From a virus, in the UHGV virus genome UHGV-0342645: a stretch of 59,919 nucleotides of DNA. One strand, 5' to 3'. Under the pieces are notes generated by a model that saw only the letters and a program-made list of their open reading frames with translations, had not been told where the DNA came from and did no database searches. Both the position numbers and the translations under genes were made by a program. Below, piece by piece: positions 24,258-45,201 of the stretch; position 1 is the first letter of the stretch, and every line of letters begins with the position of its first letter.

Positions 24258-25166
24258 ATGGCTATTTATATTGCAGAAAAAACACTTCAAGCAATCAATG
24301 ACGGTGTGCAAAAAGATCAGGGCGGGACTTACCGTAAATATCTCGGCGTAGTTATTCCTACAATTGAAGACGCATATCGTCCTGAAAGCGGAAACCGCAG
24401 CCACTTAGGCGCTTCCCTTATTGGACAACAATGTGCTCGCAAGCTGTTCTACGGATATCGCTGGGCTACGCGTAAAGAGTTTGATGGACGCCAGCTTCGA
24501 TTGTTTAACCGCGGACATCTGGAAGAAGCGCGCTTTATTGCTATGCTTCTTGCGGCAGGTATGCAGGTCTACCAGCAGGATGAAAACGGACACCAGTTCC
24601 GTATTAGCGAAGCTGGCGGACACTTTGGTGGTTCCTGTGATGGTGTGGTTATAGGTTGTCCGGATGTTCAGCCTGGGATGCCTGTGCTTACTGAAATGAA
24701 GACCCACAACGATAAGTCTTTCAAGAAACTGAAAGCTAAAGGTGTCAAAGAAGCTAAACCTGAGCACTATGTGCAGATGAACGTGTATATGCGAAAGCTT
24801 GGACTTGGTGCAGCGTTATATCTTGCTGTAAACAAGAACGATGATGAAGTTTACGCAGAAATTATTCCATTTGATCCGGTCACTGCGGACATGTATATTG
24901 ATCGTGGTGTGCAGATTGCTATTGCTACGGATATTCCTGACCGTGCATTCAAAGACTCTACCTTCTTCGAATGCAAATGGTGCGACCACTCCTCATTGTG
25001 CTGGCGTAAAACTATGCCGGAAGTAAACTGTCGTACATGTCAATTTCTTGAGCCAAAAGATGATGGAACATGGTATTGCAATTTCCATTCCGTTGCAGTA
25101 GATACGCAGGGTCAAAAAGTTGGTTGTCAAAACTATCAAGTAGCTAACTATTACGGGAAAGATTGA
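24258..25166 (+). CDS. Cas4/RecB-like PD-(D/E)xK exonuclease with C-terminal Cys cluster
   Basis: N-terminal GASLIGQQCARKLFYGYR, central D/E/K residues, C-terminal CKWCDHSSLC...CRTC...C cluster. Confidence 0.45.
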   Translation: MAIYIAEKTLQAINDGVQKDQGGTYRKYLGVVIPTIEDAYRPESGNRSHLGASLIGQQCARKLFYGYRWATRKEFDGRQLRLFNRGHLEEARFIAMLLAAGMQVYQQDENGHQFRISEAGGHFGGSCDGVVIGCPDVQPGMPVLTEMKTHNDKSFKKLKAKGVKEAKPEHYVQMNVYMRKLGLGAALYLAVNKNDDEVYAEIIPFDPVTADMYIDRGVQIAIATDIPDRAFKDSTFFECKWCDHSSLCWRKTMPEVNCRTCQFLEPKDDGTWYCNFHSVAVDTQGQKVGCQNYQVANYYGKD

Positions 25167-27145
25167 TTATGCATCTCCGCGATTATCAACAGGAAGCAGT
25201 TTATAGCGTATTCCGCTATTTTGATGCCGAAAAGGGTAACGCGGGGAACCCTTTGATCCTGTTACCAACAGGGACAGGAAAATCGCTCGTTATCGCGGGG
25301 TTCCTCGATCTGCTTTATAAATGGTATCCAAACCAGCGCGTAATGATGTTAACTCACGTCAAAGAGTTGATCGCGCAAAACTATGATAAATTAATGAAAG
25401 TCTGGCCTGAAGCGCCAGCAGGTATTTACAGCGCTGGTTTGAAGCGTAAAGAAGTTTATAATCTTATCACATTTGCGGGGGTTGCATCTGTTGCTAAGCA
25501 TCCTAAAAAGTTTGGCAAGGTTGATCTAATCTTTGTGGATGAAGCGCACCTTATTAGTCCTCGTGATGCAACAATGTATAAGAAGTTCTTTGCAGCATTG
25601 CGTGAAGTTAACCCGTATTTAAAAATTATCGGTCTTACCGCTACACCTTATCGACTGGGTTACGGCTCAATTGTTAAGGAAAACGAAGACGATGATGCTT
25701 TATTTGATAAAGTAACGTTTGATGCAACTACCCCTGAAGCCTTTAACTGGTTCCTGGAGCAAGGCTATTTGCTTCCGGTTGTGCCAAAGCGTACAAAGAT
25801 GGAACTGGACCTCAATGGTGTAGGGAAACGCGGCGGTGAGTTTATTCAGAGTGAGCTGCAAAGTGCGGTAAACCGCAACGACGCAACACTCCGCGCACTT
25901 GAGGAAGCCATTGAATGCGGTGAAGACCGTCAAAGCTGGCTTATATTTTGTTCTGGCATTGAACACGCTAAAGATGCGTGTGACATGCTGAACGATATGG
26001 GTATTAGTTGCGGATGTATTCACTCAAAGCTTGATGCAAAAGAGCGTGATGAAATTATTGAAAAGTTCAAGCGCGGGGAGTTTCGAGCATTAACGAACAA
26101 CAACGTCTTAACCACAGGTTTCGACCATCCGATGCTCGATCTAATTATTATGCTCCGCCCAACTGCCTCGGCGGTGCTATGGGTTCAGATGTTGGGTCGC
26201 GGTACGCGTCCGGTATACGCGGAAGGCTTTGATCTTTCCACGCAGGAAGGCCGCTTGCAAGCTATTGCAGCAAGCCCTAAGCAAAACTGTCTTGTACTGG
26301 ATTTCAGCGGTAATACGCGTCGTTTGGGCCCTATTAACGACCCTGTTAAACCCAAGCGCCCGGGCGAAAAAGGTGCTGGCACTGCTCCGGTTAAAGAATG
26401 CGATGTGTGCGGGTCGTATAATCATGCATCTGCTCGCTATTGCGGTGGCTTTGCACCAATTCCTATGGACAGCGTTACACAGGAACAAGTTCAACAATTA
26501 TATTTGAAGGGATTCAGACTACGTGGAACGGATTATGTTAAAGAAGGATTTTGCGGTCATGAGTTTAAGTTCCAGACCAAACTTAAAAAGGCAGCAAGTA
26601 CCGAAGCATTGATCAAGCAGGACATTCCTGTAGTTGAAGACTTTAAAGTTACGCATGTTACTTATGCGAAGCACACTAAACGCAATGACAGCTCTAAACC
26701 TCCAACAATGAAGGTGACTTATTATTGCGGTAGTAAAATATTCAGCGAATGGGTAGCTCTGCTTCATGGTGACTGGGCAGGTCGTAAAGCGGTTGCATGG
26801 TGGAAGAAAAGGACGCATCTACCTTTACCACAAACTATTGAAGAAGCTCTTGATGTTGCTGCAATGCTCAAAACGCCGAAATACATCAAAGTTCATACCA
26901 ATAAGAAATGGCCTGAGATATTGAACTATGATTATGATGGTACGTGTTTCGGTAAGTTTGAAGCACCACAGGAAGACGAAGCTATTCAAGTTAAAGTATA
27001 CGGGCAAGATGGAACAACCGAAGGTCCAAGCTATAACGATGATGTGAGCTGGGATGATATTGTTTCGCAGAATACGCAAGGTATAACAGTGAACAATGTG
27101 GTTAACCCTGTACAAGTAGATGATCCGGATTACGTTCCGTTCTAA
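25163..27145 (+). CDS. SF2 DEAD/DEAH-box DNA helicase
   Basis: Motif I LLPTGTGKS, motif II FVDEAHLIS, later GRGTR-type motif; C-terminal Cys/His-rich region. Confidence 0.7.
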   Translation: MIMHLRDYQQEAVYSVFRYFDAEKGNAGNPLILLPTGTGKSLVIAGFLDLLYKWYPNQRVMMLTHVKELIAQNYDKLMKVWPEAPAGIYSAGLKRKEVYNLITFAGVASVAKHPKKFGKVDLIFVDEAHLISPRDATMYKKFFAALREVNPYLKIIGLTATPYRLGYGSIVKENEDDDALFDKVTFDATTPEAFNWFLEQGYLLPVVPKRTKMELDLNGVGKRGGEFIQSELQSAVNRNDATLRALEEAIECGEDRQSWLIFCSGIEHAKDACDMLNDMGISCGCIHSKLDAKERDEIIEKFKRGEFRALTNNNVLTTGFDHPMLDLIIMLRPTASAVLWVQMLGRGTRPVYAEGFDLSTQEGRLQAIAASPKQNCLVLDFSGNTRRLGPINDPVKPKRPGEKGAGTAPVKECDVCGSYNHASARYCGGFAPIPMDSVTQEQVQQLYLKGFRLRGTDYVKEGFCGHEFKFQTKLKKAASTEALIKQDIPVVEDFKVTHVTYAKHTKRNDSSKPPTMKVTYYCGSKIFSEWVALLHGDWAGRKAVAWWKKRTHLPLPQTIEEALDVAAMLKTPKYIKVHTNKKWPEILNYDYDGTCFGKFEAPQEDEAIQVKVYGQDGTTEGPSYNDDVSWDDIVSQNTQGITVNNVVNPVQVDDPDYVPF

Positions 27146-27160
27146 TTGACTTCAACATCT

Positions 27161-27192
27161 AATGCCCCTACTATTGGGGCATTACTTATTTA
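27161..27192 (+). terminator. rho-independent terminator
   Basis: AATGCCCC-TACTATT-GGGGCATT followed by a T-rich tract. Confidence 0.5.
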
Positions 27193-27204
27193 TAGGGGAT
27201 TGCA

Positions 27205-27699
27205 ATGTACGTCCTGATTGATACAGATAAATTTGAACTCTTGGCAAAGCATCCCAATTGGCTGACACTACACCAACTTGGAATTATTTGTTGCCCTGAG
27301 TCAACACTGGTAACACCAGTAGACGATTTACACGATCTTGAAGATGTTGATCTTCAAATGCTTTATATTAACTTGACAGAAAACTTAGGAGCTGCACCTT
27401 ATGAACGGGAAATCGTTGAGCGCATTTTGTTTGATTACTTTACGCAACTTCCAGAAACAATCCTGGATCACGCCCAAATCAGCGCACAAGCCGAATTCTG
27501 TGTGGAATACGATATCCAAGGCTTTTGCTCACCTCAAATTGGGCAATACGTTCCGTCAATGGATGAAGGACTTTGGAAACCTGCCCGTGTCAAATACGAT
27601 GCTGAACGGGAGGGTGGTATTATTTCCGGTGCCAGGGTCGTTTGTGAGCAACCCGCATTGCAAGCTGCATGGACGCCGGGCAGAGGGGCAAAGAGCTAG
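27205..27699 (+). CDS. hypothetical protein
   Basis: 164-aa acidic ORF. Confidence 0.45.
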   Translation: MYVLIDTDKFELLAKHPNWLTLHQLGIICCPESTLVTPVDDLHDLEDVDLQMLYINLTENLGAAPYEREIVERILFDYFTQLPETILDHAQISAQAEFCVEYDIQGFCSPQIGQYVPSMDEGLWKPARVKYDAEREGGIISGARVVCEQPALQAAWTPGRGAKS

Positions 27700-27827
27700 T
27701 AAGTTCTAAGCTTGATCAAAAAATATTTTTAAAAATGTTCAGATAAGGGGTTGCGTGTCACAAAATCCTTTGGTACATTTAACCCCGTTGGTAACAAACG
27801 AACCCATAACAATTCGGAGTGAAGAGA

Positions 27828-28628
27828 ATGAGCAACATTGAAGACAAAAAAGCTGCCGCCGCAGCCGCCGCTGCCGCTGCAAAATCTGCTAAACCTGCAA
27901 AGAAAGAAGCTACTGTGAATGATGCAGAAGCTAAGAAAGCCGCTGCCGCTGAAGCTGCACGCGTAGCAAAAGAGAAAAAAGAAGCAGAGAAAAAAGCTGC
28001 CGCTGAAAAGAAACAAGCTGAAATCCGCACTGAAGCGGAAAACAAATTTACCGCTCTTTCCCAGGCAGTTGAAACCGTGAAGTTTGCTTTATCTGGTATT
28101 ACCGATGAAAGCACTGTTGAACAGATTACGGAAGCAGAATCTAAGGGTTCTGAACAGCTGAAGCATTTAAAGAATGCTCTGAAAGAGCTGAAAGCAGTTG
28201 TTAAAAAATCCAAAGGTGAAGATCTGTCCGGTGCAGTGACTGCTGCTCAGAGCATGGTAGACGAACTGGATTCGTCTATTAAAGGCTTCAAAGACAAGAT
28301 CCGTGCTGCAAAACAGGCAGAAAAAGAAGCGGAAAAAGCACGCGCTAAAGAGCTCCGCGAGAAAGAAAAAGAAGCTAATCGTATGCCGGAACAGAACGGT
28401 GTTCGTCGTCCGCAACCGGAAACTTCCTGCGGTCGTGCCTGGGCTCTGATGGACCAGATTAGCGCTACGCTGGGTCAGCCTGCTCCGATCTCTTATGTTC
28501 TGAATCTGGCTGGTCGCCAGGGGCTGAACGAAGATACCGTTAAAACCCAGTATGCACGCTGGAAGAAATTTAATGGTGTAACTGGTCGCGTACCTGTACC
28601 AGTACCGGAAGCCCTGAACGGCTTGTAA
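27828..28628 (+). CDS. Ala/Lys-rich histone-H1-like protein
   Basis: GGAG RBS; N-terminal KKAAAAAAAAAAKSAKPAKK and KEKKEAEKKAAAEKK tracts; globular C-terminal region. Confidence 0.5.
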   Translation: MSNIEDKKAAAAAAAAAAKSAKPAKKEATVNDAEAKKAAAAEAARVAKEKKEAEKKAAAEKKQAEIRTEAENKFTALSQAVETVKFALSGITDESTVEQITEAESKGSEQLKHLKNALKELKAVVKKSKGEDLSGAVTAAQSMVDELDSSIKGFKDKIRAAKQAEKEAEKARAKELREKEKEANRMPEQNGVRRPQPETSCGRAWALMDQISATLGQPAPISYVLNLAGRQGLNEDTVKTQYARWKKFNGVTGRVPVPVPEALNGL

Positions 28629-28655
28629 TATCAAAACATATCACGTTATAATGAA

Positions 28656-28682
28656 GGCGCCCAATGAGGCGCTTTCTTTTTC
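28656..28682 (+). terminator. rho-independent terminator
   Basis: GGCGCC-CAATGA-GGCGC followed by TTTCTTTTT. Confidence 0.55.
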
Positions 28683-28697
28683 ACTAGAGGATTTAAG

Positions 28698-29405
28698 ATG
28701 AATATTAATCAACAAGCTCCCGAGTCTCGTTCTAAAGAAAACGATATGTATTTAGACGTGCATTCGGTATTCTCTACCATTCAGGGTGAAGGTCCGTTCT
28801 GCGGCCAGCCTGCTGTATTTGTGCGCCTTGCTGGATGTAACCTGCAATGCCCAGGCTGCGACACGGATTATACTGTTGGTCGTTCTCTTTACCACATTGT
28901 TGATATCATGCGTTTAATCGAAAGCCGTAAGCTGGAATCAGGCAATAGCACCTCACTTGTGGTTATTACTGGGGGTGAACCGTTCCGTCAGCAAATTAAC
29001 CCGCTTATTGAACAACTGTTATCGCGGGGCTATTTGGTGCAAATCGAAACTAATGGGTCTATGCCTTTACCTAAGAACTTTTCCCAGTTGCCTGTGATTG
29101 TATGTAGCCCCAAGACCTCAAAGATTCATCCTTCTGTGCTTTACCGCGCTAATGCATTTAAATATGTACTTAAAGCGTGCTGTGTAAACGTGGAAGATGG
29201 TTTACCCCTTCAAGCATTAGATCATCAAGCTACGCCATTTATCGCTAGACCTCCGAAGGGGTTCAAGGGTAAGATATATTTACAGCCAATGGACGAGCAG
29301 GATGAAGACCTTAACCACAGTAACATCCAAGCGGTTGTCCAAAGCTGTATGAAACACGGATACACGTTGCAGCTTCAGGTTCACAAATATATCGGGGTGG
29401 AATAA
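28698..29405 (+). CDS. queE: 7-carboxy-7-deazaguanine synthase (radical SAM)
   Basis: GEGPFCGQPAVFVRLAGCNLQCPGCDTDY matches the QueE Cx14CxxC radical-SAM region; GAGGA RBS. Confidence 0.8.
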   Translation: MNINQQAPESRSKENDMYLDVHSVFSTIQGEGPFCGQPAVFVRLAGCNLQCPGCDTDYTVGRSLYHIVDIMRLIESRKLESGNSTSLVVITGGEPFRQQINPLIEQLLSRGYLVQIETNGSMPLPKNFSQLPVIVCSPKTSKIHPSVLYRANAFKYVLKACCVNVEDGLPLQALDHQATPFIARPPKGFKGKIYLQPMDEQDEDLNHSNIQAVVQSCMKHGYTLQLQVHKYIGVE

Positions 29406-29659
29406 TGCGTGTGTTAAGTCGGGTTGTGCATACTAAAGATGTTAATTTTTATGGTGTCACTTTAACCGTTCCAAGTCGAGTTGATTATCTGGCAGCTGAC
29501 AAGGATGGAAAGGTTTGTGGGTATGAAGTAGCTCCTCCAGAACTCAGTCATCGATTTGATAGATGGCTGCCAGCAGATCCGGGAGCTTACGAGTACGATG
29601 AAATAGCTTATGTAGACCTTGAAGGCTTAGACTGGACTCAAACATTAAGGGAGGTTTAA
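29405..29659 (+). CDS. hypothetical protein (paralog of 8050..8352)
   Basis: 84 aa; shares a DxDGxVxGY...VDLEGxDWxxTLxE signature with the early-arm ORF. Confidence 0.45.
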   Translation: MRVLSRVVHTKDVNFYGVTLTVPSRVDYLAADKDGKVCGYEVAPPELSHRFDRWLPADPGAYEYDEIAYVDLEGLDWTQTLREV

Positions 29660-29872
29660 ATGATCACTTTAGAAGAAGCGAAACAGCATCAGGAAATGAT
29701 CACTGAGATTGTAGAAAAACTTAATTCTGCAATTGCTCACGCTACTATGCAGGGTGTACATGTTGAATTAGATATTAACCACGTTAGCACAATCGGAGCA
29801 CGCAATCATCCGATTGTGCTGTCAAATGTAACAATTAATCCTTGTGATATTAAAGGTGTAGAAGATGAATGA
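29660..29872 (+). CDS. hypothetical small protein (tandem paralog A)
   Basis: 70 aa; AIAHATMQGVHVELDINHV resembles AICRAASKNIHSELEIHQR of the next ORF. Confidence 0.4.
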   Translation: MITLEEAKQHQEMITEIVEKLNSAIAHATMQGVHVELDINHVSTIGARNHPIVLSNVTINPCDIKGVEDE

Positions 29873-30053
29873 AGAAACTGTAATTCTTATGCAGAAAATT
29901 CAACGTTTACAGGACGAGTTGAATGACGCTATTTGCCGCGCTGCATCCAAGAACATACATTCGGAGCTTGAAATACACCAGCGTAAGGTAACATCTGAAG
30001 CGGTGGTGGAACAAGTAGTCATTAACCTCAATATTAGTCTTAAAGGTTTCTAA
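29865..30053 (+). CDS. hypothetical small protein (tandem paralog B)
   Basis: 62 aa; similar to the preceding ORF; overlaps it by 8 nt. Confidence 0.4.
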   Translation: MNEETVILMQKIQRLQDELNDAICRAASKNIHSELEIHQRKVTSEAVVEQVVINLNISLKGF

Positions 30054-30054
30054 A

Positions 30055-30762
30055 ATGAATAAATTAGATAAACTGGTATTCCCTGTAAAAAATCATAACT
30101 CCGCCGTTGTAGTCCTGTCTGGCGGCCAGGACAGTGTGACCTGTTTAGGTCTTGCACTTAATAACTATGATAAGGTTTACGCTATTGGTTTTGCATACGG
30201 TCAACGTCATAACATTGAGCTGGCTTGTGCTAATCAAATTTGTAAAGAGCACGATGTCCCATTTGTTGTCTTTGAATTACCTGCTTTGAAACAGATTGGG
30301 AATAGCGCTTTAATCGGGGATGAAGGTGATGTTAACGAACATCACGAACAGCACAACAACCTTCCGGCAAGCTTTGTGCCAAACCGTAATGCTCTTTTCC
30401 TCACTACCGCGCACGCTTACGCACAGAAAGTTGGCGCTCGATATGTGGTTACGGGCGTTTGTGAAACAGACTATAGCGGTTATCCGGATTGCCGCCAGCA
30501 GTTTGTAAACTTGCTTGAAGCTACATTAAACGTTGGATATGAAACTGATATCCATTTTGTTACACCGCTTATGCGTTTAAATAAAGCGGAAACGTTTGAA
30601 CTGGCGGATAAGGTTGGTTTCTTAACCACAGTAATTGAACAGTCCCATACTTGCTATAACGGTGTCCGTCGCACTCTGCATGACTGGGGCTATGGTTGCG
30701 GTGAATGCCCTGCGTGCAAACTGCGTGCTAAAGGGTACAGCGAATTTATTAGCAAAGCTTAA
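30055..30762 (+). CDS. queC: 7-cyano-7-deazaguanine synthase
   Basis: PP-loop VVLSGGQDSVTC, GVCETDYSGYPDCR and C-terminal CYNG...GCGECPAC zinc-binding motif; 235 aa with no fused amidotransferase domain. Confidence 0.85.
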   Translation: MNKLDKLVFPVKNHNSAVVVLSGGQDSVTCLGLALNNYDKVYAIGFAYGQRHNIELACANQICKEHDVPFVVFELPALKQIGNSALIGDEGDVNEHHEQHNNLPASFVPNRNALFLTTAHAYAQKVGARYVVTGVCETDYSGYPDCRQQFVNLLEATLNVGYETDIHFVTPLMRLNKAETFELADKVGFLTTVIEQSHTCYNGVRRTLHDWGYGCGECPACKLRAKGYSEFISKA

Positions 30763-30882
30763 TCTTACCGCGAAAACCGCACCGCTAGCGCATTGTTTAG
30801 GGTGCGGGAACCCAACTATACTACTAAAGCTTTTAAACCCAACAACCAGCGAATACCGCTGTTAAAACTGGAGAACAAAAGT

Positions 30883-31362
30883 ATGAAATTTATCGTCGCT
30901 TATTTGGCTGCAATTACATTCGTAAATCTGGGCTTTTCCTACCTCCCAATGCTTAACACGCCTCTTGGCGTAGTCCCCATGATGGCTTTCTTTGTAGGTA
31001 TTATCTTTGTGTTGCGTGACTACGCACAGCGTAACGCTGGCAAAGGCGTTATCCCTGCAATGATTGTGGGTTGCATCCTTAGCTGGGTATTTGGGGACCC
31101 TGCTGTTGTAGTTGCATCCGTTGCATCCTTTGCTCTTAGCGAGTTTGCGGACTATGCGGTATACACGATTACTAAGAAGCCGTTTCATCAACGTGTATTT
31201 ATCAGCTCTTTGGTAGCTGTACCAATTGACTCCATTGTGTTCTTAAGTATTATAGGTATTGTTAATCCGGGATCAATGGTAGCAATGAGCTTAAGTAAGT
31301 TCACAGCATCTGCCATCCTTTGGGTTGTTTACGAAGTTCATTCACGTACAGCGAGAGCGTAA
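30883..31362 (+). CDS. yhhQ: queuosine-precursor transporter-like membrane protein (YhhQ family, putative)
   Basis: 159-aa polytopic membrane protein with VLRDYAQRN and SEFADYAVY motifs reminiscent of YhhQ; located between queC and queD. Confidence 0.45.
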   Translation: MKFIVAYLAAITFVNLGFSYLPMLNTPLGVVPMMAFFVGIIFVLRDYAQRNAGKGVIPAMIVGCILSWVFGDPAVVVASVASFALSEFADYAVYTITKKPFHQRVFISSLVAVPIDSIVFLSIIGIVNPGSMVAMSLSKFTASAILWVVYEVHSRTARA

Positions 31363-31363
31363 A

Positions 31364-31954
31364 ATGAAAGATAATTTGAATAAAATTTGGCATCAACACG
31401 ACGGTAAAGGAATGCCTATTTTTCTTCGTAATGAGAAGTTTGAAGTTCGTTTGCGCAACGGCACACACGTTAAGAATCTATTACATGGATGGGATTGGGC
31501 TATGGAAGGGCGTTCAGCTATGGATGAGAATAGCCCTTATAAAGTTCAAGATATTATAGCCTGGCGATATATTGTTGCGGATGATTACGTCAAACAAGCC
31601 GGCGAAAACACTCGCTCCGGAGTGTGCCATCAATCTTCTTCTGGAATAAGCATAAGTAATACATTTAATGGTGCAGTTTTTACGAAATATGAACCATCTA
31701 AAATTCCCATGAATAAATATCAGAAAATTATTTATGGTAAAGATCAAAACGGCAATGTTGTAAAATGCATCGTGGACGTGTATGATGTCTTGGAAGCTTG
31801 GAAAACGACTAACCCAGCTTTACAACATTTGATTAAAAAGGCGTTGCAGCCTGGCGAACGCGGTCATAAAAGTCTGGTAGAAGACTTGAAAGATATTATT
31901 GCATCTGCACAGCGTGCGTTAGAAATTGAACAGTCTAAAGAGGTGTTAAAATGA
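31364..31954 (+). CDS. uncharacterised protein inside the 7-deazaguanine cluster
   Basis: 196-aa soluble ORF between the yhhQ-like gene and queD; start 1 nt after upstream stop, stop overlaps the queD start; no motif recognised. Confidence 0.5.
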   Translation: MKDNLNKIWHQHDGKGMPIFLRNEKFEVRLRNGTHVKNLLHGWDWAMEGRSAMDENSPYKVQDIIAWRYIVADDYVKQAGENTRSGVCHQSSSGISISNTFNGAVFTKYEPSKIPMNKYQKIIYGKDQNGNVVKCIVDVYDVLEAWKTTNPALQHLIKKALQPGERGHKSLVEDLKDIIASAQRALEIEQSKEVLK

Positions 31955-32484
31955 GCTATACAGTAATTCGTTCACATGAAATTTGTGCTGGACATCGTGT
32001 TGTAGGACATGAAAGCAAGTGTCGTCATCTTCACGGTCACAACTATAAGTTTCACTTTAAGGTTGCACCGAAGCGCGTAGAAAGCGAAAACTACATCCCG
32101 GGCGCGAAAGGTTTCTCCGTTGAAGGTAAACTGGACGATGTCGGGCGCGTTATTGATTTTAGTGTGGTTAAGACTACGCTCTGTCAGTGGCTGGAAGACA
32201 ACTGGGATCACAAGTTCCTGCACTGGGAAAATGATCCTCTCATTAAAGGCCTCGATGCTCTTTTACGTCACGACGCTGCTATAGGGTATGACGTGGTAGA
32301 GCAAGAGGACGGATCCCATTTCTTTGACTCACTGGTAGCGCTACCGTTCAACCCAACTGCGGAGAACTTAGCTGCATATATGGTTAACGTAATTGGACCG
32401 CAACTACTTGACGGACATGGTGTTCAACTTGTAGAATGCACCATCGAAGAAACTTCGAAATGCCACGTAAATTATAGCCTGTAA
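31951..32484 (+). CDS. queD: 6-carboxy-5,6,7,8-tetrahydropterin synthase
   Basis: EICAGHRVVGHESKCRHLHGHNYKFHF matches the QueD/PTPS Cys and HGH zinc-binding motif. Confidence 0.75.
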   Translation: MSYTVIRSHEICAGHRVVGHESKCRHLHGHNYKFHFKVAPKRVESENYIPGAKGFSVEGKLDDVGRVIDFSVVKTTLCQWLEDNWDHKFLHWENDPLIKGLDALLRHDAAIGYDVVEQEDGSHFFDSLVALPFNPTAENLAAYMVNVIGPQLLDGHGVQLVECTIEETSKCHVNYSL

Positions 32485-32519
32485 TATGACCACATTAACA
32501 AACAAGGAAACTGCAAACC

Positions 32520-33101
32520 ATGCGTAAAGATACTGTAAAAATTGCTATTAGTTCATTACTTTTAAATATTGAAGGTTCAACAGAACTCCGTCCTGGGTTG
32601 GAAGAGACTCCTGAACGTGTCGCTAAAGCATACCAGACGTGGTTCGGCGGTTACGATGTAGATATCGCTGGATTGTTTAAAACCTTTGAGGATGGGGCTG
32701 AAAACACCAATGAAATGGTCATTGCCCGTGATATTCCTGTATACAGTCATTGTGAGCATCACATGGCTCCTATTATCGGTCATGCTGTTGTGGGTTATGT
32801 TCCCAATGGGAAGATCGTTGGGCTCAGTAAACTGTCTCGCGTAGTTGATGCTTTTAGCCGTCGCTTGCAAGTCCAAGAGCGTCTAACTAACCAGATTGCA
32901 GACGCTATCCAGGAGCATTTAAACCCGAAAGCTGTATGCGTTTATATTGACGCCAAACATATGTGCATGGAGTCGCGCGGTGTTAAGCAGGTATGCGGCA
33001 GCTCTACCATTACCAAAGCGTTCCGGGGCGCTACAGAACTGGAGCATGGTAGCGATATTGGTAAAGAATGGCGCCGGGAGTTCCTTGAAGCTTGTAAATA
33101 A
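32520..33101 (+). CDS. folE: GTP cyclohydrolase I
   Basis: CEHHMAPIIGHAVVGYVPNGKIVGLSKLSRVVDAFSRRLQVQERLTNQIA is nearly collinear with the FolE active-site region. Confidence 0.85.
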   Translation: MRKDTVKIAISSLLLNIEGSTELRPGLEETPERVAKAYQTWFGGYDVDIAGLFKTFEDGAENTNEMVIARDIPVYSHCEHHMAPIIGHAVVGYVPNGKIVGLSKLSRVVDAFSRRLQVQERLTNQIADAIQEHLNPKAVCVYIDAKHMCMESRGVKQVCGSSTITKAFRGATELEHGSDIGKEWRREFLEACK

Positions 33102-33171
33102 TAGATAGCTTTACAGATCAAGCCCATATCGGTCATAATACTGGTATGGGCTTTTTAGTTGGTATAAGACA

Positions 33172-33729
33172 ATGGAAATTATCACAAGAGCTGAAGCAAA
33201 AGAAAGAGGTTTGAAATATTATTTTACTGGTAAGCCTTGTGCGAAAGGTCATCTTTCTGAAAGAAAGACTGTAGATGGCTATTGCATTACTTGTGACAGA
33301 GAAGCACGAAAGAAAAGAATGCGTATTTACAATAAAACAGAAGCTGCAAGGAATGCTATTAAGAGATATCATAAGTCACAGAAAGGAAAAGAAGCCCTTC
33401 AACGTTCAAAAGCTGCTTATAATTCTACTGAGAAAGGTAAAGAACAAAATAAAGAAAGGCTGAAACGCTGGGCTAAGACAGATTACGGTAAAGCTAGATC
33501 AAGATTACATTCCCTTGAAGTGCATAAGAAAAGGTCTTTAAGAATCCCTGCGTGGTCTGAAAAAGAACAAATTGAATTGTTCTACGCTAACTGCCCGGAT
33601 GGGATGGAGGTTGATCATATTATACCTCTTTGCGGTAAAAGAGTTAGTGGACTTCACGTCCTTAGTAACCTACAATACTTATCTATTGAAGAAAACAGAT
33701 CTAAGCGTAATAAATTTGAGGTGGAATAA
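33172..33729 (+). CDS. HNH homing endonuclease
   Basis: C-terminal MEVDHIIPLCGKRVSGLHVLSNLQYLSIEENRSKRNK HNH motif; N-terminal Cys/His cluster; AT-rich with AGA/AGG Arg codons unlike the flanking genes. Confidence 0.7.
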   Translation: MEIITRAEAKERGLKYYFTGKPCAKGHLSERKTVDGYCITCDREARKKRMRIYNKTEAARNAIKRYHKSQKGKEALQRSKAAYNSTEKGKEQNKERLKRWAKTDYGKARSRLHSLEVHKKRSLRIPAWSEKEQIELFYANCPDGMEVDHIIPLCGKRVSGLHVLSNLQYLSIEENRSKRNKFEVE

Positions 33730-34649
33730 TGCATCTGTTTGTTGCTGCGGTATATACCAACGGCTATAAAGCTGGTCAACAACGATATGAAAAGTTAAAC
33801 GATCGGGAAAAGGACATCGTTAATAGCCTACCAAATATTTTGGAATCATACCACTACGTTGGACGTCAGAAGTATGTTGATCAAATGCGTGCGGACGGGG
33901 CTAAAGTGTTTCTCGACTCCGGAGCATTCTCCGCGCACTCGTTAGGTGCTCACATTGATATTGTCGAATATTGCGAATACATCAAACGCAATAAAGATAT
34001 CCTGCGCGTAGAAGATGGTGCTGTAATGGCGTCAGTGCTTGATGGTATCGGTGATCCACTGCAAACCTACCGTAACCAGCTTGAAATGGAAGCACGCGGT
34101 GCTAAACCGTTACCTTGCTTTCACTTTGGGGAGGACTTCCGCTATCTCGAATATTACATGAAGAACTACGAATATATCACCATCGGGGGCATGGTAGGGC
34201 GTTCCACGGACACGCTTAAAACTTGGCTTGACCGCATGTGGGATAAATATATTTGCGATGGTAGCGGTCGCCCTAAGATTAAGCTTCATGCATTTGGTAT
34301 TACGTCCACTACCATTATGGAACGTTACCCGTGGTATAGCTGTGACTCATCCTCCTGGATTCAAGCGGCAGCGTTTGGAAGTGTGGTTACTCCTCCGTGG
34401 GGCCCGATGCGCGTATCTGACAAGTCACCGGACCGACACCATTTCGGTAAGCACGTTTCAACGCTAACTGAAATTGAACAAGACGCTGTCCTTAAATACC
34501 TTGAGCAAAACGGTTTCACTTACGAACGTTTATCAACAATCTATGAATCACGTGCTGCCTTCAACTTATGGGCGTATGGTGTAATTGCTGCAAACATTAA
34601 CGCTACCCATGACGGCACATTCCGTGATCGTGTAATGGAGTTGTTCTGA
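33729..34649 (+). CDS. dpdA: DpdA-like DNA-guanine transglycosylase (TGT family)
   Basis: KVFLDSGAFS and ITIGGMVGRS segments typical of DpdA/TGT TIM-barrel proteins; 306 aa; embedded in the que cluster. Confidence 0.65.
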   Translation: MHLFVAAVYTNGYKAGQQRYEKLNDREKDIVNSLPNILESYHYVGRQKYVDQMRADGAKVFLDSGAFSAHSLGAHIDIVEYCEYIKRNKDILRVEDGAVMASVLDGIGDPLQTYRNQLEMEARGAKPLPCFHFGEDFRYLEYYMKNYEYITIGGMVGRSTDTLKTWLDRMWDKYICDGSGRPKIKLHAFGITSTTIMERYPWYSCDSSSWIQAAAFGSVVTPPWGPMRVSDKSPDRHHFGKHVSTLTEIEQDAVLKYLEQNGFTYERLSTIYESRAAFNLWAYGVIAANINATHDGTFRDRVMELF

Positions 34650-34876
34650 TGGCTAACTTAAGAAGACCAAAAGGTAAACGTAAATATACTCACACAGGCG
34701 TAAGAATTAATTACTACGGTGAAAACAGAGTAGTATTCCTCCACAAGACACCTAAGCAGTGGCAGGATCCGTCAGGCACATGGTTTAATGCACAAGGGAA
34801 ACAAATGGGACTTTATGGATACCCTCCAACCTGTGAATTAGATTTAACCACAATTAGAGCAATCGAGGATCGCTAA
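34649..34876 (+). CDS. hypothetical basic protein
   Basis: 75-aa ORF translationally coupled to dpdA (ATGA overlap). Confidence 0.4.
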   Translation: MANLRRPKGKRKYTHTGVRINYYGENRVVFLHKTPKQWQDPSGTWFNAQGKQMGLYGYPPTCELDLTTIRAIEDR

Positions 34877-35829
34877 TGTTAGACGCTCTTAAATTTGTTC
34901 AAGGCTCCGTTGCTAAAAAGGAACTGGTAGAAGGGCTTACCAGTTTTCTTATTCGTGACGGCCAAGTACAGGGCTTTAACGGTGTTATCGCACTGGGTAG
35001 CCCTATTGAGTTGGATATTGATTGCAAGCCCGAAGCTGGACCTATGATCAAAGCTATTTCAAACTGTGATGAAACAGTGCAGTTAACAATGATGGCTAAC
35101 GGTAAGCTGAATATCAAGTCAGGTCCGTTTCGTGTTGCTATACGCTGCATTGATAAAGAAACGCCGCACGTATTCCCTGAAGGCGATTTGTACGAAATAG
35201 ACGGTGCTCGCTTTGTTCATGGTGTGAAGTCCGTTGCTCCATTTGTAGGCTCCGATGCTTCCCGTCCGTGGGCTTGCGGTATCCTGATTAATAACGGTAG
35301 CCTGTTTGCTACAAATAACGTCACTATTGCGGAATACTGGTTTGGTAATCAATTCCCTATCGATTGCATAATACCTTCCGTTGCAATTAAAGAAATACTG
35401 CGTATTAAAGCTAACCCGACGCATATTCAGGTCAGTAAAAATAACGTAACGTTTCATTATTCGGAAGGTCGCTGGTTGCGCACACAGCTTATTGATGCAG
35501 AGTGGCCCGATATACGTCGTATTTTAAATGTTCAATGCAATGCACATCCTGTTGATCCAGGTCTTTTTGAAGGCTTGCATAAAATTAAACCGTTCGCAGA
35601 AGACCGACCGCGTGTATATATTGAAAACGGTCTAGCCCGTACTCACTATGATGATGCGGAAGGTGCAAGCTTTGTATTACAGGACCGCACAATAACGGGA
35701 GTGTACAATATTGACATCCTGCTATTGCTTGAAAATGTGGTTAAGACTGCGGACTTTAGTTTATATCCGCAACCTTGCGCATTCTTTGGGGAAAATCTTC
35801 GCGGTGTATTAATTGGAGAACGTGTCTAA
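34876..35829 (+). CDS. DNA polymerase sliding clamp, beta-clamp-like (putative)
   Basis: N-terminus MLDALKFVQGS and LNIKSGPFRVAIRCIDKETPHVFPE resemble the DnaN segment around SGRSRF...DFP; directly upstream of the polymerase. Confidence 0.4.
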   Translation: MLDALKFVQGSVAKKELVEGLTSFLIRDGQVQGFNGVIALGSPIELDIDCKPEAGPMIKAISNCDETVQLTMMANGKLNIKSGPFRVAIRCIDKETPHVFPEGDLYEIDGARFVHGVKSVAPFVGSDASRPWACGILINNGSLFATNNVTIAEYWFGNQFPIDCIIPSVAIKEILRIKANPTHIQVSKNNVTFHYSEGRWLRTQLIDAEWPDIRRILNVQCNAHPVDPGLFEGLHKIKPFAEDRPRVYIENGLARTHYDDAEGASFVLQDRTITGVYNIDILLLLENVVKTADFSLYPQPCAFFGENLRGVLIGERV

Positions 35830-37814
35830 TGCGGACAGATGCTATTGGTTTCTTTTGGCAGGACTTACCGCCTGAGCCAAAAGCAAAGAAAGAAAAAGTT
35901 AAACGTTTACCGCCGGAGCGCACTTGGGAGCGCCCGGATTATTTGCCCAATCTTGAGGAAGCGCGGAACTTCCAATACAACCTGTATACGCAGGACGAAC
36001 TTATTCAAGCATGGATTAACCGCGAACCGCTTGTATACGATATTGAATGTTATCCAAATTATTTCTTAATCGCGTTTCGCGGAGTACGGACTAAGAAAGT
36101 CGTCTACTTCGAAATGTATCACGGTTGTAGTTTGAATTGCTTGTTACTTAACTGGGTAATGACAAACTTCCTTATCGTAAGCTTTAACGGTAACGGGTAC
36201 GATATGCCCATTGCTACGCTTGCGCTTAACGGCTGCTCTAATGCTCAGCTTAAAGATGCAACCGATAAAATAATCGTGGAAGACTGGCGACCTTCCGATG
36301 TGTTGAAGAGTTACCGGCTTAAGCGTATGCAGAATGTTAACCACATTGATATTATGGAAGTTCTGCCTGGGTCCGGTGGTTTGAAACAATATGGCGGACG
36401 TGTACATACTCGCCGTATGCAGGATTTACCATTTAAGCCAAATACAATGTTGACGCAGGACCAGATGTTGATTGTACGCTGGTACTGTATTAACGACCTT
36501 GTACAGACAGAAGAATGTTTTATCGCATTACAAGAACCTTTGCACCTTCGTGAAATTATGTCGCAAGAATACGGTGTGGATCTGCGTTCACGTTCCGATG
36601 CACAGATCGCAGAAGACGTAATTAAGCACGAAATCCAAGCGTTAACTGGTGTGCGTCCGCAGCGCCCCCAAGTTTATCCTGGAACAAAGTATGCATACAA
36701 CATACCGGACTTCATTCGTTTTCAAACACCTCTAATGAATAGTGTTTTGGATATTGTTCGGGACTGTCGTTTTATTGTTAGCGATAACGGTGGTGTTAGC
36801 CTACCCCCAGCGTTAACAGGGCTTGAGATTAAGATCGCGGACGGTGTCTACCGTATGGGTATTGGCGGTTTGCACAGCTCTGAAGAATGTGCTGGTCACG
36901 GTAAAGAGCCAGGTATTAAGAAGCGGGACATTGACGTAACGTCCTATTACCCTTCTATTATTCTTAATCAGGGCTTGTATCCTGAGCAGTTGGGGCCAGC
37001 GTTTCTTCGTGTTTATAAAAGCATTGTAGACCGACGTATTGCAGCTAAGCACTCAGGGGACAAGAACACAGCCAATACGCTGAAGATCGTAATCAACGGA
37101 TCGTTCGGTAAATTGGGCTCAATGTGGTCCGTACTGTACGCTCCGCAATTATTGATACAAGTTACATTAACTGGACAGTTATCACTGTTGATGCTTATTG
37201 AAGCGTTTGAACTGAACGGCGTTAAAGTAATTTCAGCTAACACGGATGGTATTGTGGTTAAGTACCCTGACCACATGCAGGACTTCGTTGATAACATGAT
37301 CAAGTGGTGGGAGTCCGTGACAGGCTTTGAAATGGAATCCAACTACTATGACAAGCTGTACAGTGCTAACGTCAATAACTATGTTGCAGTAAAAGAACCT
37401 GATGAGGAAGGAAATGTTGAAATCAAACGTAAAGGCTGGTTCGCAAAAACAGGGCTTCAAAAGAACTGTACTGGTGAAATTATTATGGAAGCTGTATGTG
37501 AATGTTTGGCCCACGGTACGCCTGTTTCTCGTACTATACGCAATTGCAACGATATTAGAAAATTCATTATCCTACGTGCGGTGAAAGGCGGCGCAGTATG
37601 GAATGGCGAATTTTTGGGTAAGGTTGTACGCTGGTACTTAAGCACTAATGAAGAAACACCTGAAATAATCTATGCTAACTCGGGCAACCGTGTAGCTGGT
37701 AGTGCTGGAGGCGTACCGATCATGACGTTACCGGATAAAGTGCCGGACGATATAGATTATGACGCTTACATAGCTAAGGCTGAAAAGTATCTCGAAGACA
37801 TGGGATACGCCTAA
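35829..37814 (+). CDS. family B DNA polymerase
   Basis: Exonuclease motifs YDIECYP, NGYDMPIA, YCINDL; polymerase motifs DVTSYYPSIIL (motif A), KIVINGSFGKLG (motif B), ISANTDGIVV (motif C). Confidence 0.75.
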   Translation: MRTDAIGFFWQDLPPEPKAKKEKVKRLPPERTWERPDYLPNLEEARNFQYNLYTQDELIQAWINREPLVYDIECYPNYFLIAFRGVRTKKVVYFEMYHGCSLNCLLLNWVMTNFLIVSFNGNGYDMPIATLALNGCSNAQLKDATDKIIVEDWRPSDVLKSYRLKRMQNVNHIDIMEVLPGSGGLKQYGGRVHTRRMQDLPFKPNTMLTQDQMLIVRWYCINDLVQTEECFIALQEPLHLREIMSQEYGVDLRSRSDAQIAEDVIKHEIQALTGVRPQRPQVYPGTKYAYNIPDFIRFQTPLMNSVLDIVRDCRFIVSDNGGVSLPPALTGLEIKIADGVYRMGIGGLHSSEECAGHGKEPGIKKRDIDVTSYYPSIILNQGLYPEQLGPAFLRVYKSIVDRRIAAKHSGDKNTANTLKIVINGSFGKLGSMWSVLYAPQLLIQVTLTGQLSLLMLIEAFELNGVKVISANTDGIVVKYPDHMQDFVDNMIKWWESVTGFEMESNYYDKLYSANVNNYVAVKEPDEEGNVEIKRKGWFAKTGLQKNCTGEIIMEAVCECLAHGTPVSRTIRNCNDIRKFIILRAVKGGAVWNGEFLGKVVRWYLSTNEETPEIIYANSGNRVAGSAGGVPIMTLPDKVPDDIDYDAYIAKAEKYLEDMGYA

Positions 37815-37824
37815 ATTCTACTTG

Positions 37825-37850
37825 CAGACCCTTCGCGGGTCTGTTTTAAT
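37825..37850 (+). terminator. rho-independent terminator
   Basis: CAGACCC-TTCGC-GGGTCTG followed by TTTTAAT. Confidence 0.6.
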
Positions 37851-37878
37851 ATATGCATACAACAAGAGGAGATACAAA

Positions 37879-38163
37879 ATGAGCTTAGTAGACGATTACA
37901 ATAAAGGTAAAATTGATGCTGTGGAACTTAACCGTCAGCTTAATAAACAAAATGAAGAACGCAAACAAGGTAAATACCTTACAATGATTGTTGCGCTTAT
38001 CTTCACTGTTATTGGTGGATGTGTTTACGGCTACATTAACCACACTGTTGAAGTCGGCAACGAATGTCGCGCTAAATATCCAATTCACGTTGGTGTAACT
38101 CCACAGGAAGACATTGATGCGCTTCTTGAACTTCAAGCCTTATGTCGTAAAGGAAAAGCATAA
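37879..38163 (+). CDS. small membrane protein
   Basis: GGAG RBS; internal ATG MSLVDDY; one TM segment LTMIVALIFTVIGGCVYGYI. Confidence 0.4.
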   Translation: MSLVDDYNKGKIDAVELNRQLNKQNEERKQGKYLTMIVALIFTVIGGCVYGYINHTVEVGNECRAKYPIHVGVTPQEDIDALLELQALCRKGKA

Positions 38164-38456
38164 TGAAACGTTTATTACTCGTAACTTTGATGATAGCGCC
38201 TACGGTCCAAGCTGTAGACTTAAAGGAAGCAACAAAGAAATTATGCCAAGACCATCCTATTAGGGTACAATGTGAACAACTTGTATCCAGTATGTTGACG
38301 CATTCTTACGTGATGGGTCAAACTCAAATTGGATGTGAGTTAGGTATTATTGATGCGTGCAAAGCGGCGCGTACCAATAAACATTTTGAAAAGAACGCAC
38401 GTTGGCTGGAGCAGCGCATTAGAGCCCTTGATCATAGGGGTACTTTTGGGGGTTAG
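38163..38456 (+). CDS. secreted protein
   Basis: N-terminal signal peptide MKRLLLVTLMIAPTVQA; four Cys in the mature part. Confidence 0.45.
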   Translation: MKRLLLVTLMIAPTVQAVDLKEATKKLCQDHPIRVQCEQLVSSMLTHSYVMGQTQIGCELGIIDACKAARTNKHFEKNARWLEQRIRALDHRGTFGG

Positions 38457-38488
38457 CCGCGTGTAAAACCTTAAAGGGGTACATTAGC

Positions 38489-38695
38489 ATGGCTGGTAAA
38501 GAAAAGAGCGTAGCAAGCGATTTAGGTGCGGATGTAGTAGGTCGCGAACCGTGGCAACATGGTGACAAACCAGTAGTTTACATTCACGTCTATTACTGGA
38601 ATAATATGACCGCGGAGCAACAAGAAGCGTTAAAGGTTTTAGCCGACGTTATTGTTGTTCCAGATGAGGTATCACCGGAAACACCGGAAGCGTAA
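38489..38695 (+). CDS. hypothetical protein
   Basis: 68-aa acidic ORF. Confidence 0.35.
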   Translation: MAGKEKSVASDLGADVVGREPWQHGDKPVVYIHVYYWNNMTAEQQEALKVLADVIVVPDEVSPETPEA

Positions 38696-38702
38696 TAAAA
38701 TA

Positions 38703-38724
38703 ATACCCGCGTTCGCGCGGGTAT
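38703..38724 (+). terminator. weak rho-independent terminator
   Basis: ACCCGCG-TTCG-CGCGGGT followed by a short ATTT tract. Confidence 0.35.
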
Positions 38725-38737
38725 TTAAGGAGTGAAT

Positions 38738-38926
38738 ATGGCTAGAGCAGCAAAAGGTTACAGACAGACTTTTAAGCTAATTGGTGGACCGTGGGACGGG
38801 CAAAAGGTGCAACTATATAGCGCCGGAACGCTGGAGTTCTCAGTGAAAAGCTTCGATCCACGTCCAGGGCGCTATGTATCCGCGGGTAATGCTTATAATC
38901 TAATTTGGGAGTTTACCGATGAGTGA
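38738..38926 (+). CDS. hypothetical protein
   Basis: AAGGAG RBS 8 nt before ATG (MARAAKGY); 62 aa. Confidence 0.4.
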   Translation: MARAAKGYRQTFKLIGGPWDGQKVQLYSAGTLEFSVKSFDPRPGRYVSAGNAYNLIWEFTDE

Positions 38927-39125
38927 GTATGTGGTTATGTATTTTGTAATTGGCGCAATTGTTGCAGCAATGACTTATTGCTTCTGTTGGGATAACTATG
39001 ATTATGCAATAGCTCATAAGAAACGTTGGGAGAAGATTGTAAGTCTTCTATGTATACTCGCTTGCTGGCCGGTCACTATTATTGCGACTGCTTATGATCA
39101 ATACATGTACAGGAGACGCAAATGA
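38919..39125 (+). CDS. small membrane protein (2 TM)
   Basis: MSEYVVMYFVIGAIVAAMTYCF and LLCILACWPVTIIATAY hydrophobic segments. Confidence 0.4.
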   Translation: MSEYVVMYFVIGAIVAAMTYCFCWDNYDYAIAHKKRWEKIVSLLCILACWPVTIIATAYDQYMYRRRK

Positions 39126-39403
39126 TGGAATATCTATTAGTTGTCGTTGCGCTATTTCTAATCATTGTTGTTATAATGACCGGAGATAGTAATGAGAAGG
39201 GCTTTACAGCAATGAGCAGGGCGTTATTACGCGCCCTTGCTGTTGCACTGCTTGGGACAAGTTTTGCTATGGCGTTTGGGGTTGTGGAGATCCCTAGCAC
39301 CTATTACGGTTTTGTTAAAGTTCAACATCAACTCACTTATGCTACCGTCGTCGGATTGGGTGCTGTAACACTTGCAATCCTGTCAGCTTTTCATAAGCGT
39401 TAA
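39122..39403 (+). CDS. membrane protein
   Basis: 93 aa with three hydrophobic segments; last gene of the plus arm. Confidence 0.4.
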   Translation: MMEYLLVVVALFLIIVVIMTGDSNEKGFTAMSRALLRALAVALLGTSFAMAFGVVEIPSTYYGFVKVQHQLTYATVVGLGAVTLAILSAFHKR

Positions 39404-39404
39404 A

Positions 39405-39428
39405 GAAAGGGCGTTTGCCCCTTTTCTC
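39405..39428. terminator. weak bidirectional terminator at the convergence point of both arms
   Basis: GGGC-GTTT-GCCC flanked by A-rich and T-rich tracts, between the last plus gene (39403) and the last minus gene (39432). Confidence 0.35.
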
Positions 39429-39431
39429 TTC

Positions 39432-39635
39432 TTAGAATATACGAAAGAAAGAACCGTATGGGTATACGCCAAAAGTATTGAAAACAGGCGGTGCAAAAGC
39501 ATTCACAAACACAGGAGTTGGCGCTACTGGTTGAAAAGTTTTGCAATTACACGCCGCTTGAGCCAATTGTCCCTGAAGTATACCTGCTTGTGTTGCAGGA
39601 CTGCCTAGACAGCAACGGTTAGTATTACCACACAT
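39432..39635 (-). CDS. small Cys-rich protein
   Basis: AGGAGG RBS 7 nt upstream overlapping the upstream stop; MCGNTNRCCLGSP...CNC; Pro/Phe-rich C-terminus. Confidence 0.35.
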   Translation of the reverse strand: MCGNTNRCCLGSPATQAGILQGQLAQAACNCKTFQPVAPTPVFVNAFAPPVFNTFGVYPYGSFFRIF

Positions 39636-39646
39636 AGTAGACCTCC

Positions 39647-40448: not shown

Positions 40449-40463
40449 GTCGGCTTCCTATTA

Positions 40464-42763: not shown

Positions 42764-42772
42764 AACTACTCC

Positions 42773-45183: not shown

Positions 45184-45201
45184 AATTTCTCCCACATTTA
45201 A

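Follow-up and report, generated by a model that had tools for sequence, protein, structure and literature searches.

Here we have analysed a 59,919-nucleotide (nt) viral DNA, UHGV virus genome UHGV-0342645 (the whole of this stretch is called the window below), and find that its positions 28698-35829 very probably hold a module with which a Seuratvirus phage places the 7-deazaguanine dPreQ0 in its DNA. The region consists of 13 tightly packed plus-strand open reading frames (ORFs), many with overlapping stop and start codons (Table 1): six pathway genes (queE, queC, yhhQ, queD, folE and dpdA), six other ORFs of 84, 70, 62, 196, 185 and 75 amino acids (aa), and a sliding-clamp gene. An initial annotation, made from the letters alone, had proposed a DpdA-centred 7-deazaguanine cluster inside the replication module; this proposal matches published Seuratvirus biology, and it is carried here by gene identities, by protein folds and by near-identity to the characterised system of phage CAjan (Seuratvirus cajan).

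Seuratvirus coliphages replace between about one quarter and one third of the guanines in their DNA by preQ0, and thereby resist restriction enzymes. In CAjan, the published "7-deazaguanine modification gene cluster" comprises twelve genes, among which the six that can be assigned are those of the window (PMC7544227). Its DNA contains dPreQ0 at 70,628 per 1e6 nt (~32% of dG), with dADG, dG+ (2'-deoxyarchaeosine), dPreQ1 and dQ below detection (other deazaguanines <6 per 1e6), and deletion of its dpdA abolishes the modification and leaves the DNA fully restriction sensitive (PMC6884629). Nanopore mapping has located the modification at GA and GGC; deletion of folE or queC lowers it ~12-fold, and deletion of yhhQ has no effect (PMC7544227). 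The window shares with CAjan the genus as well as gene order and flanks (helicase ... queE-queC-yhhQ-queD-folE-dpdA-clamp-polB), and the encoded proteins are 99.1% (QueE), 96.6% (QueC), 98.8% (YhhQ), 95.4% (DpdA), 100% (orf75), 99.4% (clamp) and 99.5% (PolB) identical in amino acids, with lower values for FolE (87%), QueD (78%) and orf196 (55%). The two clusters differ at several points: in the window, queE is followed by orf84, an HNH endonuclease gene stands before dpdA where CAjan has a 68-aa ORF, the first 120 nt of dpdA are divergent, and the 107-aa ORF found before queD in CAjan is missing.

Positions 27729-40649 match, at 100% identity, a contig of 59,949 bp from metagenome run SRR6060213, and the window runs collinear with CAjan along its whole length, once reverse-complemented and circularly permuted (51.4 of 59.9 kb aligned). 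It is therefore a complete, metagenome-assembled Seuratvirus (Queuovirinae) genome. It shows ~93% nt identity to phages ECP2304 and WildeMaa; furthermore, the cluster region matches 33 Seuratvirus genomes at 90-94% nt identity across at least 80% of its length, or ~93% across 84-93% of the region, and the annotations of these 33 genomes give the same gene names. The boundaries first drawn for the cluster are exact, 28698 being the start of queE and 35829 the stop of the clamp-like gene, and all of the motifs first listed recur in the translations (QueE AGCNLQCPGCDTDY, QueC SGGQDS, QueD CRHLHGH, FolE CEHH, GLSKL and QVQERLT, DpdA FLDSGAFS). The picture of seven contiguous plus-strand genes holds for the strand but not for contiguity, as six other ORFs are interleaved with the pathway genes; likewise, five ORFs do stay without assignable function, but a sixth, at 33172-33729, is an HNH-type endonuclease gene.

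By modifying their DNA with 7-deazaguanines, phages counter restriction enzymes and, in vitro, Cas9 as well, which makes the modification an important counter-defence. The cluster itself is already known: it defines Seuratvirus and Queuovirinae, and mass spectrometry, deletions and nanopore mapping have been used to dissect it in CAjan. Another Seuratvirus genome bearing it adds a member rather than a concept. What is new in detail is an HNH insertion with an altered dpdA 5' tract, and a terminator-like hairpin after folE that appears to split the cluster; in the literature considered, the part not already described is the internal variation, made up of the HNH insertion with the dpdA 5' tract and of variable small ORFs.

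Precursor-synthesis enzymes

Profile searches, proposed as a check in the initial annotation, place QueC, FolE and (on its Pfam model) QueD above the curated cut-offs, and leave QueE and (on its NCBIfam model) QueD below them. QueC scores 251 bits on its Pfam profile, above cut-off, with profile positions 2-208 of 210 covered, and 242 bits on the equivalog TIGR00364 (cut-off 150.3); it carries its PP-loop together with a C-terminal cysteine cluster, CGECPAC, and two solved QueC structures, 2pg3 and 3bl5, match it from end to end (E 3e-57). The ORF has every hallmark of QueC, including the lack of a fused amidotransferase that had been noted from the sequence: the QueC profile fills the 235-aa protein, and the Gat half of the corresponding fusion protein of phage 9g is unmatched anywhere in the window. 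FolE is of type 1, with 210 bits on Pfam, 188.8 bits on TIGR00063 (cut-off 181.6) and a CEHH zinc motif.

QueD scores 78 bits on the Pfam PTPS profile (cut-off 22.4) and contains GHR in addition to CRHLHGH. A CxxxHGH motif with its cysteine is the feature that separates QueD from PTPS, and the ORF, combining this motif with the PTPS profile, is identified as QueD. QueE has the CX3CX2C motif of a radical SAM enzyme (C47, C51 and C54, in the triad CNLQCPGC). Its best five NCBIfam matches are all QueE equivalogs (E 4e-28 to 4e-21), followed by NrdG2 at 1e-10, and the sole matches in a PDB search were three solved QueE enzymes, 4njg, 6nhl and 5tgs, with residues 14-234 aligned to 6nhl (E. coli QueE). 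The cysteine triad and a similarity that is specific to QueE among radical SAM enzymes thus identify the first gene of the cluster as queE.

DpdA

The proposed base-exchange enzyme matches the phage DpdA family phrog_887 (E 1e-94). Searched against Pfam it gave nothing, even at E up to 5, so that the TGT profile (PF01702) is not matched, and a sequence search of PDB chains gave nothing at E up to 1. Because both of these searches were empty, the link to TGT enzymes is taken from predicted structure. An AlphaFold2 model built from 46 homologs (pLDDT 74, pTM 0.75) was used for a Foldseek search, in which the top 35 PDB matches were all ArcTGT/TGT structures, of the archaeosine and the queuine type; the best was 1j2b (E 3.9e-5, probability 1.00, TM 0.46-0.52). 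The model therefore predicts a TGT-like TIM-barrel fold, and kinship with TGT, as modelled, is visible at the fold level only. The original designation of a TGT-family, DpdA-like protein is supported by the phage DpdA family and by the predicted fold, and is left without the Pfam TGT profile.

Three aspartates, D63 (in FLDSGAFS), D105 and D206 (in CDSSSW), are invariant in the 46 homologs. When the DpdA alignment was compared with E. coli Tgt using hhalign, only the DSG motif was aligned, with FLDSGAFS placed on the active-site TDSGGFQ (Asp89); the match is weak (E 0.027, probability 1.8%) and, given these poor statistics, is not taken as proof that the catalytic residues are equivalent, so that the aspartates are candidate catalytic residues.

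Using tblastn, DpdA homologs were found in 236 phage records. The window protein is 99.7% identical to that of ECP2304, 95.4% to those of CAjan and Seurat, ~70% to those of Pseudomonas Queuovirinae and, over its full length, 68.3% to that of 9g. Judged by this closeness to the characterised DpdAs of CAjan and 9g (PMC6884629), it would fall in the phage DpdA1 subfamily (CAjan/9g type).

Predicted base and comparison with known systems

Both the pathway and its activity are inferred: the steps follow the homology of the enzymes and what is established for queuosine and archaeosine synthesis. FolE would convert GTP to dihydroneopterin triphosphate, from which QueD would lead to 6-carboxy-tetrahydropterin and the radical SAM enzyme QueE to 7-carboxy-7-deazaguanine; QueC would then take the latter through the amide ADG to the nitrile preQ0. 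DpdA, as a TGT-fold transglycosylase, would swap guanine for preQ0 in phage DNA that has already been made, and the YhhQ-like protein probably salvages external preQ0, as a dispensable addition. DNA modified in this way would be expected to resist many type I and type II restriction enzymes; Seuratvirus and other Queuovirinae phages of the BASEL collection do resist type I and type II restriction-modification in vivo (PMC8594841).

The base first predicted from the sequence, of a preQ0/ADG type, is supported by the kinship with CAjan and can be narrowed to dPreQ0, as opposed to dADG or dG+, because there is no Gat domain and no detectable QueF or ArcS. The absence of a QueF-like ORF, reported at the outset, holds for those parts of the window that blastn leaves unaligned to CAjan; ORFs located there also gave no match to ArcS, GATase or methyltransferase families. 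As for where the base would be placed, modification at GA and GGC is expected because the window DpdA is nearly identical to that of CAjan. GA sites account for 24.4% and GGC sites for 4.1% of G in the window (28.5% in total), compared with 24.1% and 4.0% (28.1%) in CAjan; from these shares, we estimate that ~28% of dG would be modified, or ~6.3e4 dPreQ0 per 1e6 nt.

Comparison with more distant systems is informative as to the final base. According to the BASEL study, the modification is a signature feature of Queuovirinae, with dPreQ0 in Seuratvirus and dG+ in Nonagvirus, the latter via a Gat-QueC fusion (PMC8594841). The Nonagvirus 9g, also of the Queuovirinae and also with queE ... queD-folE-dpdA-clamp-pol after a helicase gene, is 68% (DpdA), 82% (FolE), 77% (QueD) and 63% (QueE) identical to the window, and its gp07 has the C-terminal module of orf196. 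It lacks yhhQ, and its QueC is part of a 471-aa Gat-QueC fusion, which converts preQ0 further to G+; the 235-aa QueC of the window is only 29% identical to the QueC half of this protein, which matches via residues 241-457 only.

Among the Pseudomonas Queuovirinae, whose DpdA is ~70% identical, phage iggy and its relatives likewise carry dPreQ0, but the DpdA of iggy modifies GA only (16.5% of dG), whereas the CAjan type also modifies GGC; furthermore, iggy has a queC unrelated in sequence and no yhhQ (PMC10484667). In the bacterial Dpd system of Salmonella Montevideo (DpdA/DpdB/DpdC), a TGT-family DpdA also exchanges preQ0 into DNA (PMC10164549). Compared with it, the window shows no DpdB ATPase, no DpdC (which turns preQ0 into ADG) and none of the restriction genes dpdD-K; the phage system is one of anti-restriction, whereas bacterial Dpd serves self/non-self discrimination.

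HNH endonuclease and the 5' tract of dpdA

The 185-aa ORF directly before dpdA matches phrog_1035, "endonuclease VII" (E 5e-16), and weakly Pfam HNH (E 0.22); it has the motif EVDHIIP...N...N, and a PDB sequence search with it returned nothing. Among 42 matching phage records only 5 carry it, with 98.5-99.1% identity, in a region that is otherwise ~93% identical; the isolates ECP2304 and KS_A3 both have the gene. The first 120 nt of the adjoining dpdA show 42 mismatches against CAjan and WildeMaa, which are without the HNH gene, and 4 against ECP2304, which has it, while the rest of dpdA shows 0-8 differences per 60 nt against all three. Additionally, four of four contigs encoding this exact DpdA have the HNH gene upstream.

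With its motif, its sporadic spread and its altered flank, the ORF qualifies as a putative homing endonuclease, and the combination of HNH gene and divergent dpdA 5' tract is the pattern expected of such an enzyme with a co-converted or cleavage-immune flank. Its distribution points to a sporadic, selfish insertion that stands outside the deazaguanine pathway. Owing to the linkage of the dpdA 5' tract with the HNH gene, 13 of the 14 amino acid differences between the window DpdA and that of CAjan lie within residues 2-36. With natural variants of this kind one could probe which regions of DpdA determine its sequence specificity, and by what means a homing endonuclease handles dPreQ0-modified target DNA.

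A second HNH-like ORF is found at 12210-12545 on the minus strand (phrog_99, E 2.5e-6), in a stretch without a CAjan counterpart; another such stretch, 13004-14474, includes a 242-aa ORF at 13254-13982 (phrog_27223).

Small ORFs and the YhhQ-like protein

None of orf84, orf70, orf62, orf196 and orf75 matched an enzyme family in PHROG and Pfam searches, and none of the five is needed to account for the chemistry. The first of them, orf84, is a variable accessory gene of the small-protein family phrog_1972, absent from CAjan; two paralogs lie far off, in the early region of the same genome (8050-8352 and 8683-8964, both on the minus strand). It looks like a variable small gene and not a pathway component. 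As a candidate tailoring enzyme we reject it, given the absence of an enzyme-family match, its absence from CAjan and its two early-region paralogs.

The next two ORFs, orf70 and orf62, are adjacent and overlapping, weakly similar to each other (38% over 26 residues, E 8e-5) and both kept in CAjan; they are probably tandem paralogs, judging from this similarity. The CAjan homolog of orf70, 94% identical, is labelled "radical SAM domain-containing", a label that is not supported, as orf70 has no Pfam match. The 75-aa ORF between dpdA and the clamp gene is identical in amino acids not only in CAjan but also in WildeMaa and ECP2304, and it overlaps dpdA with its start codon and the clamp gene with its stop codon, an arrangement that predicts translational coupling to both.

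The protein of the largest of the five, orf196, begins with a small beta domain, continues with a disordered linker that differs from relative to relative, and ends in a very strongly conserved C-terminal module (residues 115-196; 31706-31954) modelled by AlphaFold2 as a beta hairpin with three helices (pLDDT 75-86) and marked by the invariant motifs KY, DVYD and H..KKAL..G.RGHK. This module occurs in 758 phage records, mostly of Salmonella and Escherichia phages, joined to many different N-terminal domains, and keeps 40-79% identity between very different phages; it also forms the C-terminus of 9g gp07. A fold search (BFVD) gave weak matches to "SaV-like" proteins and to T7-type "nucleotide kinase" proteins. 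Because most carriers of the module are without DpdA, a deazaguanine-specific role for orf196 is unlikely, and as a pathway-specific accessory it is an unlikely candidate, the module being present in 758 records and DpdA in 236, of which only 3 are from Salmonella.

The YhhQ-like protein, called as such at the outset, is supported by its near-identity to the CAjan "putative preQ0 transporter"; its profile matches are weak and fall under the Pfam and NCBIfam cut-offs, with 25.4 bits on Vut_1 (E 2e-5, cut-off 27.2, only positions 58-140 of 152 covered) and 21 bits on TIGR00697 (cut-off 51), and its start is corrected here to 30883. We regard it as a putative preQ0/queuosine-precursor transporter. 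In one relative, on a 23.9-kb metagenome contig, a single reading frame joins the initial ~50 residues of the YhhQ-like protein to the C-terminal part of the orf196 homolog. This resembles a natural deletion of most of yhhQ and agrees with the dispensability of the gene. The 120-nt spacer between queC and yhhQ (30763-30882) holds an inverted repeat, CCGCACC ... GGTGCGG; an Rfam scan of 27000-38500, which includes this spacer, gave no preQ1-type riboswitch and only one sRNA match, at chance level.

Alternative explanations

Several observations weigh against reading the cluster as a working dPreQ0 module. The genome is a metagenome-assembled contig, and modification in it is predicted by homology, not from chemistry or genetics. 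QueE falls below every curated NCBIfam cut-off, QueD reaches 63 bits on TIGR03367 where the cut-off is 89, and the YhhQ-like protein is also below curated cut-offs. On the bacterial DpdA model NF041059 the window DpdA scores 17 bits against a cut-off of 200 (E 0.002, residues 147-212 only), and it is not a DpdA of the bacterial type. Its 13 substitutions relative to CAjan at positions 2-36 may have an effect on activity or motif choice. Finally, five conserved or variable small ORFs are unexplained, the characterised cluster of CAjan has neither orf84 nor the HNH gene, and the transcription units proposed below come from consensus pattern scans only.

That the genes might instead serve tRNA modification, with host queuosine boosted or hijacked and the "TGT" acting on tRNA, is suggested by the annotations of relatives, often "queuine/queuosine tRNA-ribosyltransferase" and "queuosine biosynthesis", and by the four synthesis enzymes, which are the same as those for tRNA queuosine. 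We find this barely credible: DpdA misses the Pfam TGT family entirely and belongs with the phage DpdA group, CAjan DNA loses its dPreQ0 when the gene for its 95.4% identical DpdA is deleted (PMC6884629), neither tRNA genes nor queA, queG, queH or queF are present in the window, and dpdA is positioned between replication genes. It is also improbable, if somewhat less so, that the end product is another 7-deazaguanine (dADG, dG+, dPreQ1 or a base with further decoration); QueC would then halt at the amide, or one of the unassigned ORFs would be an undescribed tailoring enzyme. Tailoring enzymes (DpdL, DpdM and DpdN) are found in phage clusters elsewhere (PMC10516641), five ORFs of the cluster are without a function, orf84 is missing in CAjan, and a protein with the C-terminal module of orf196 is kept within the 9g cluster too. 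However, CAjan has homologs of orf70, orf62, orf196 and orf75 and yet contains dPreQ0 only (PMC6884629), and QueC lies above the equivalog cut-off for preQ0 synthases and is 96.6% identical to CAjan QueC. The ORFs themselves give this alternative little room, with no enzyme-family matches, two more copies of the orf84 family far from the cluster, and an orf196 module found mostly in phages without DpdA.

The concentration of 13 substitutions in DpdA residues 2-36, in a genome known from assembly and not from a propagated phage, raises the alternative that the cluster has partly decayed, for example through an HNH-linked swap of the first 36 DpdA residues that inactivates the enzyme, so that the DNA would be unmodified or modified at a low level. 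Against this, all ORFs are intact. At least four independent contigs, 5-7% apart in nt elsewhere, have the same DpdA with the HNH gene upstream, and the isolate ECP2304 has a 99.7% identical DpdA, which implies that the allele has been maintained by selection. Furthermore, D63, D105 and D206 are kept, and the N-terminal strand and helices are confidently modelled, leaving decay with a very slim chance. We hold it unlikely, though a shade less remote than any of the foregoing, that the HNH-linked dpdA allele, or orf196 or orf75, changes how DpdA works, be it in target motif or density or by tying base exchange to the replisome; the lineage would then be functionally unlike CAjan. The reading of the cluster as a dPreQ0 module of the CAjan kind remains by far the best explanation.

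Transcription units, replication genes and other regions

Three terminator-like hairpins on the plus strand (Table 1) suggest that the region is divided into two transcription units, one for precursor synthesis (queE to folE) and one comprising dpdA, orf75, the clamp gene and polB. The hairpin at 28653-28676 would be the probable boundary of the first unit, and that at 37824-37844 the probable end of the second. Between the two, the hairpin directly after folE sits within 58 nt (33102-33159) that more than 30 related phages share at 100% identity, although the genes on either side are only 84-93% identical, and the record of phage Seurat has a "terminator" annotated at this position. A shared unit of dpdA, orf75, clamp and polB would couple preQ0 insertion to replication.

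The clamp-like gene and the family B polymerase that had been placed downstream of the cluster are both borne out, with the polymerase starting at 35829. The clamp matches phrog_947 (E 8.5e-82) and, below cut-off, dnaN TIGR00663 (E 1e-8) and Pfam DNA_pol3_beta_2 (E 9e-5). The polymerase matches phrog_1252 (E 3.5e-228); its assignment to family B stands because the only other models and structures matched, although far under cut-offs, are of family B (NF004419, E 1.5e-9; 1s5j, E 1.9e-5; Pol II 3k57, E 0.009), and because it carries the family B motifs Exo I, A, B and C (DIECYP, DVTSYYPSI, KIVINGSFG and NTDG).

Table 1. Genes and candidate regulatory elements of the cluster and its flanks.
Feature	Position	Strand	Description	Place or basis
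Helicase gene	25163-27145		superfamily II helicase	upstream of cluster
Promoter-like site	28623-28652		TTGTAA-18-TATAAT	ahead of 28653 hairpin; consensus scan
Terminator-like hairpin	28653-28676	+	9-bp stem and T-run	just upstream of queE; consensus scan
queE	28698-29405	+	CDG synthase, 235 aa	profiles, PDB matches, CAjan identity
orf84	29405-29659	+		phrog_1972
orf70	29660-29872	+		phrog_26258
orf62	29865-30053	+		phrog_24420
queC	30055-30762	+	preQ0 synthase, 235 aa	Pfam, TIGR00364, PDB
yhhQ-like	30883-31362	+	small membrane protein, 159 aa	Vut_1 and TIGR00697 below cut-off; CAjan identity
orf196	31364-31954	+		phrog_23361, AlphaFold2 model
queD	31951-32484	+	6-carboxy-5,6,7,8-tetrahydropterin synthase (PTPS fold), 177 aa	Pfam PTPS, CRHLHGH
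folE	32520-33101	+	GTP cyclohydrolase I type 1, 193 aa	Pfam, TIGR00063
Terminator-like hairpin	33120-33153	+	14-bp stem with 6 G-C pairs, T-run	directly 3' of folE
HNH gene	33172-33729	+	HNH-type (endonuclease VII-like) putative homing endonuclease, 185 aa	phrog_1035
dpdA	33729-34649	+	phage DpdA1-type, 306 aa	phrog_887, TGT fold (predicted)
orf75	34649-34876	+		phrog_38388
Clamp gene	34876-35829	+	DNA polymerase III beta-like sliding clamp, 317 aa	phrog_947
polB	35829-37814	+	family B DNA polymerase, 661 aa	phrog_1252, motifs
Terminator-like hairpin	37824-37844	+		after polB; pattern match

Beyond the cluster, the tail-fibre region (41789-46552) is the part of the window most divergent from CAjan; it includes an ORF with a Peptidase_S74 chaperone domain (41783-42763) and one with phage_tail_N (43045-45195). 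This divergence is consistent with receptor-binding modules being swapped among relatives.

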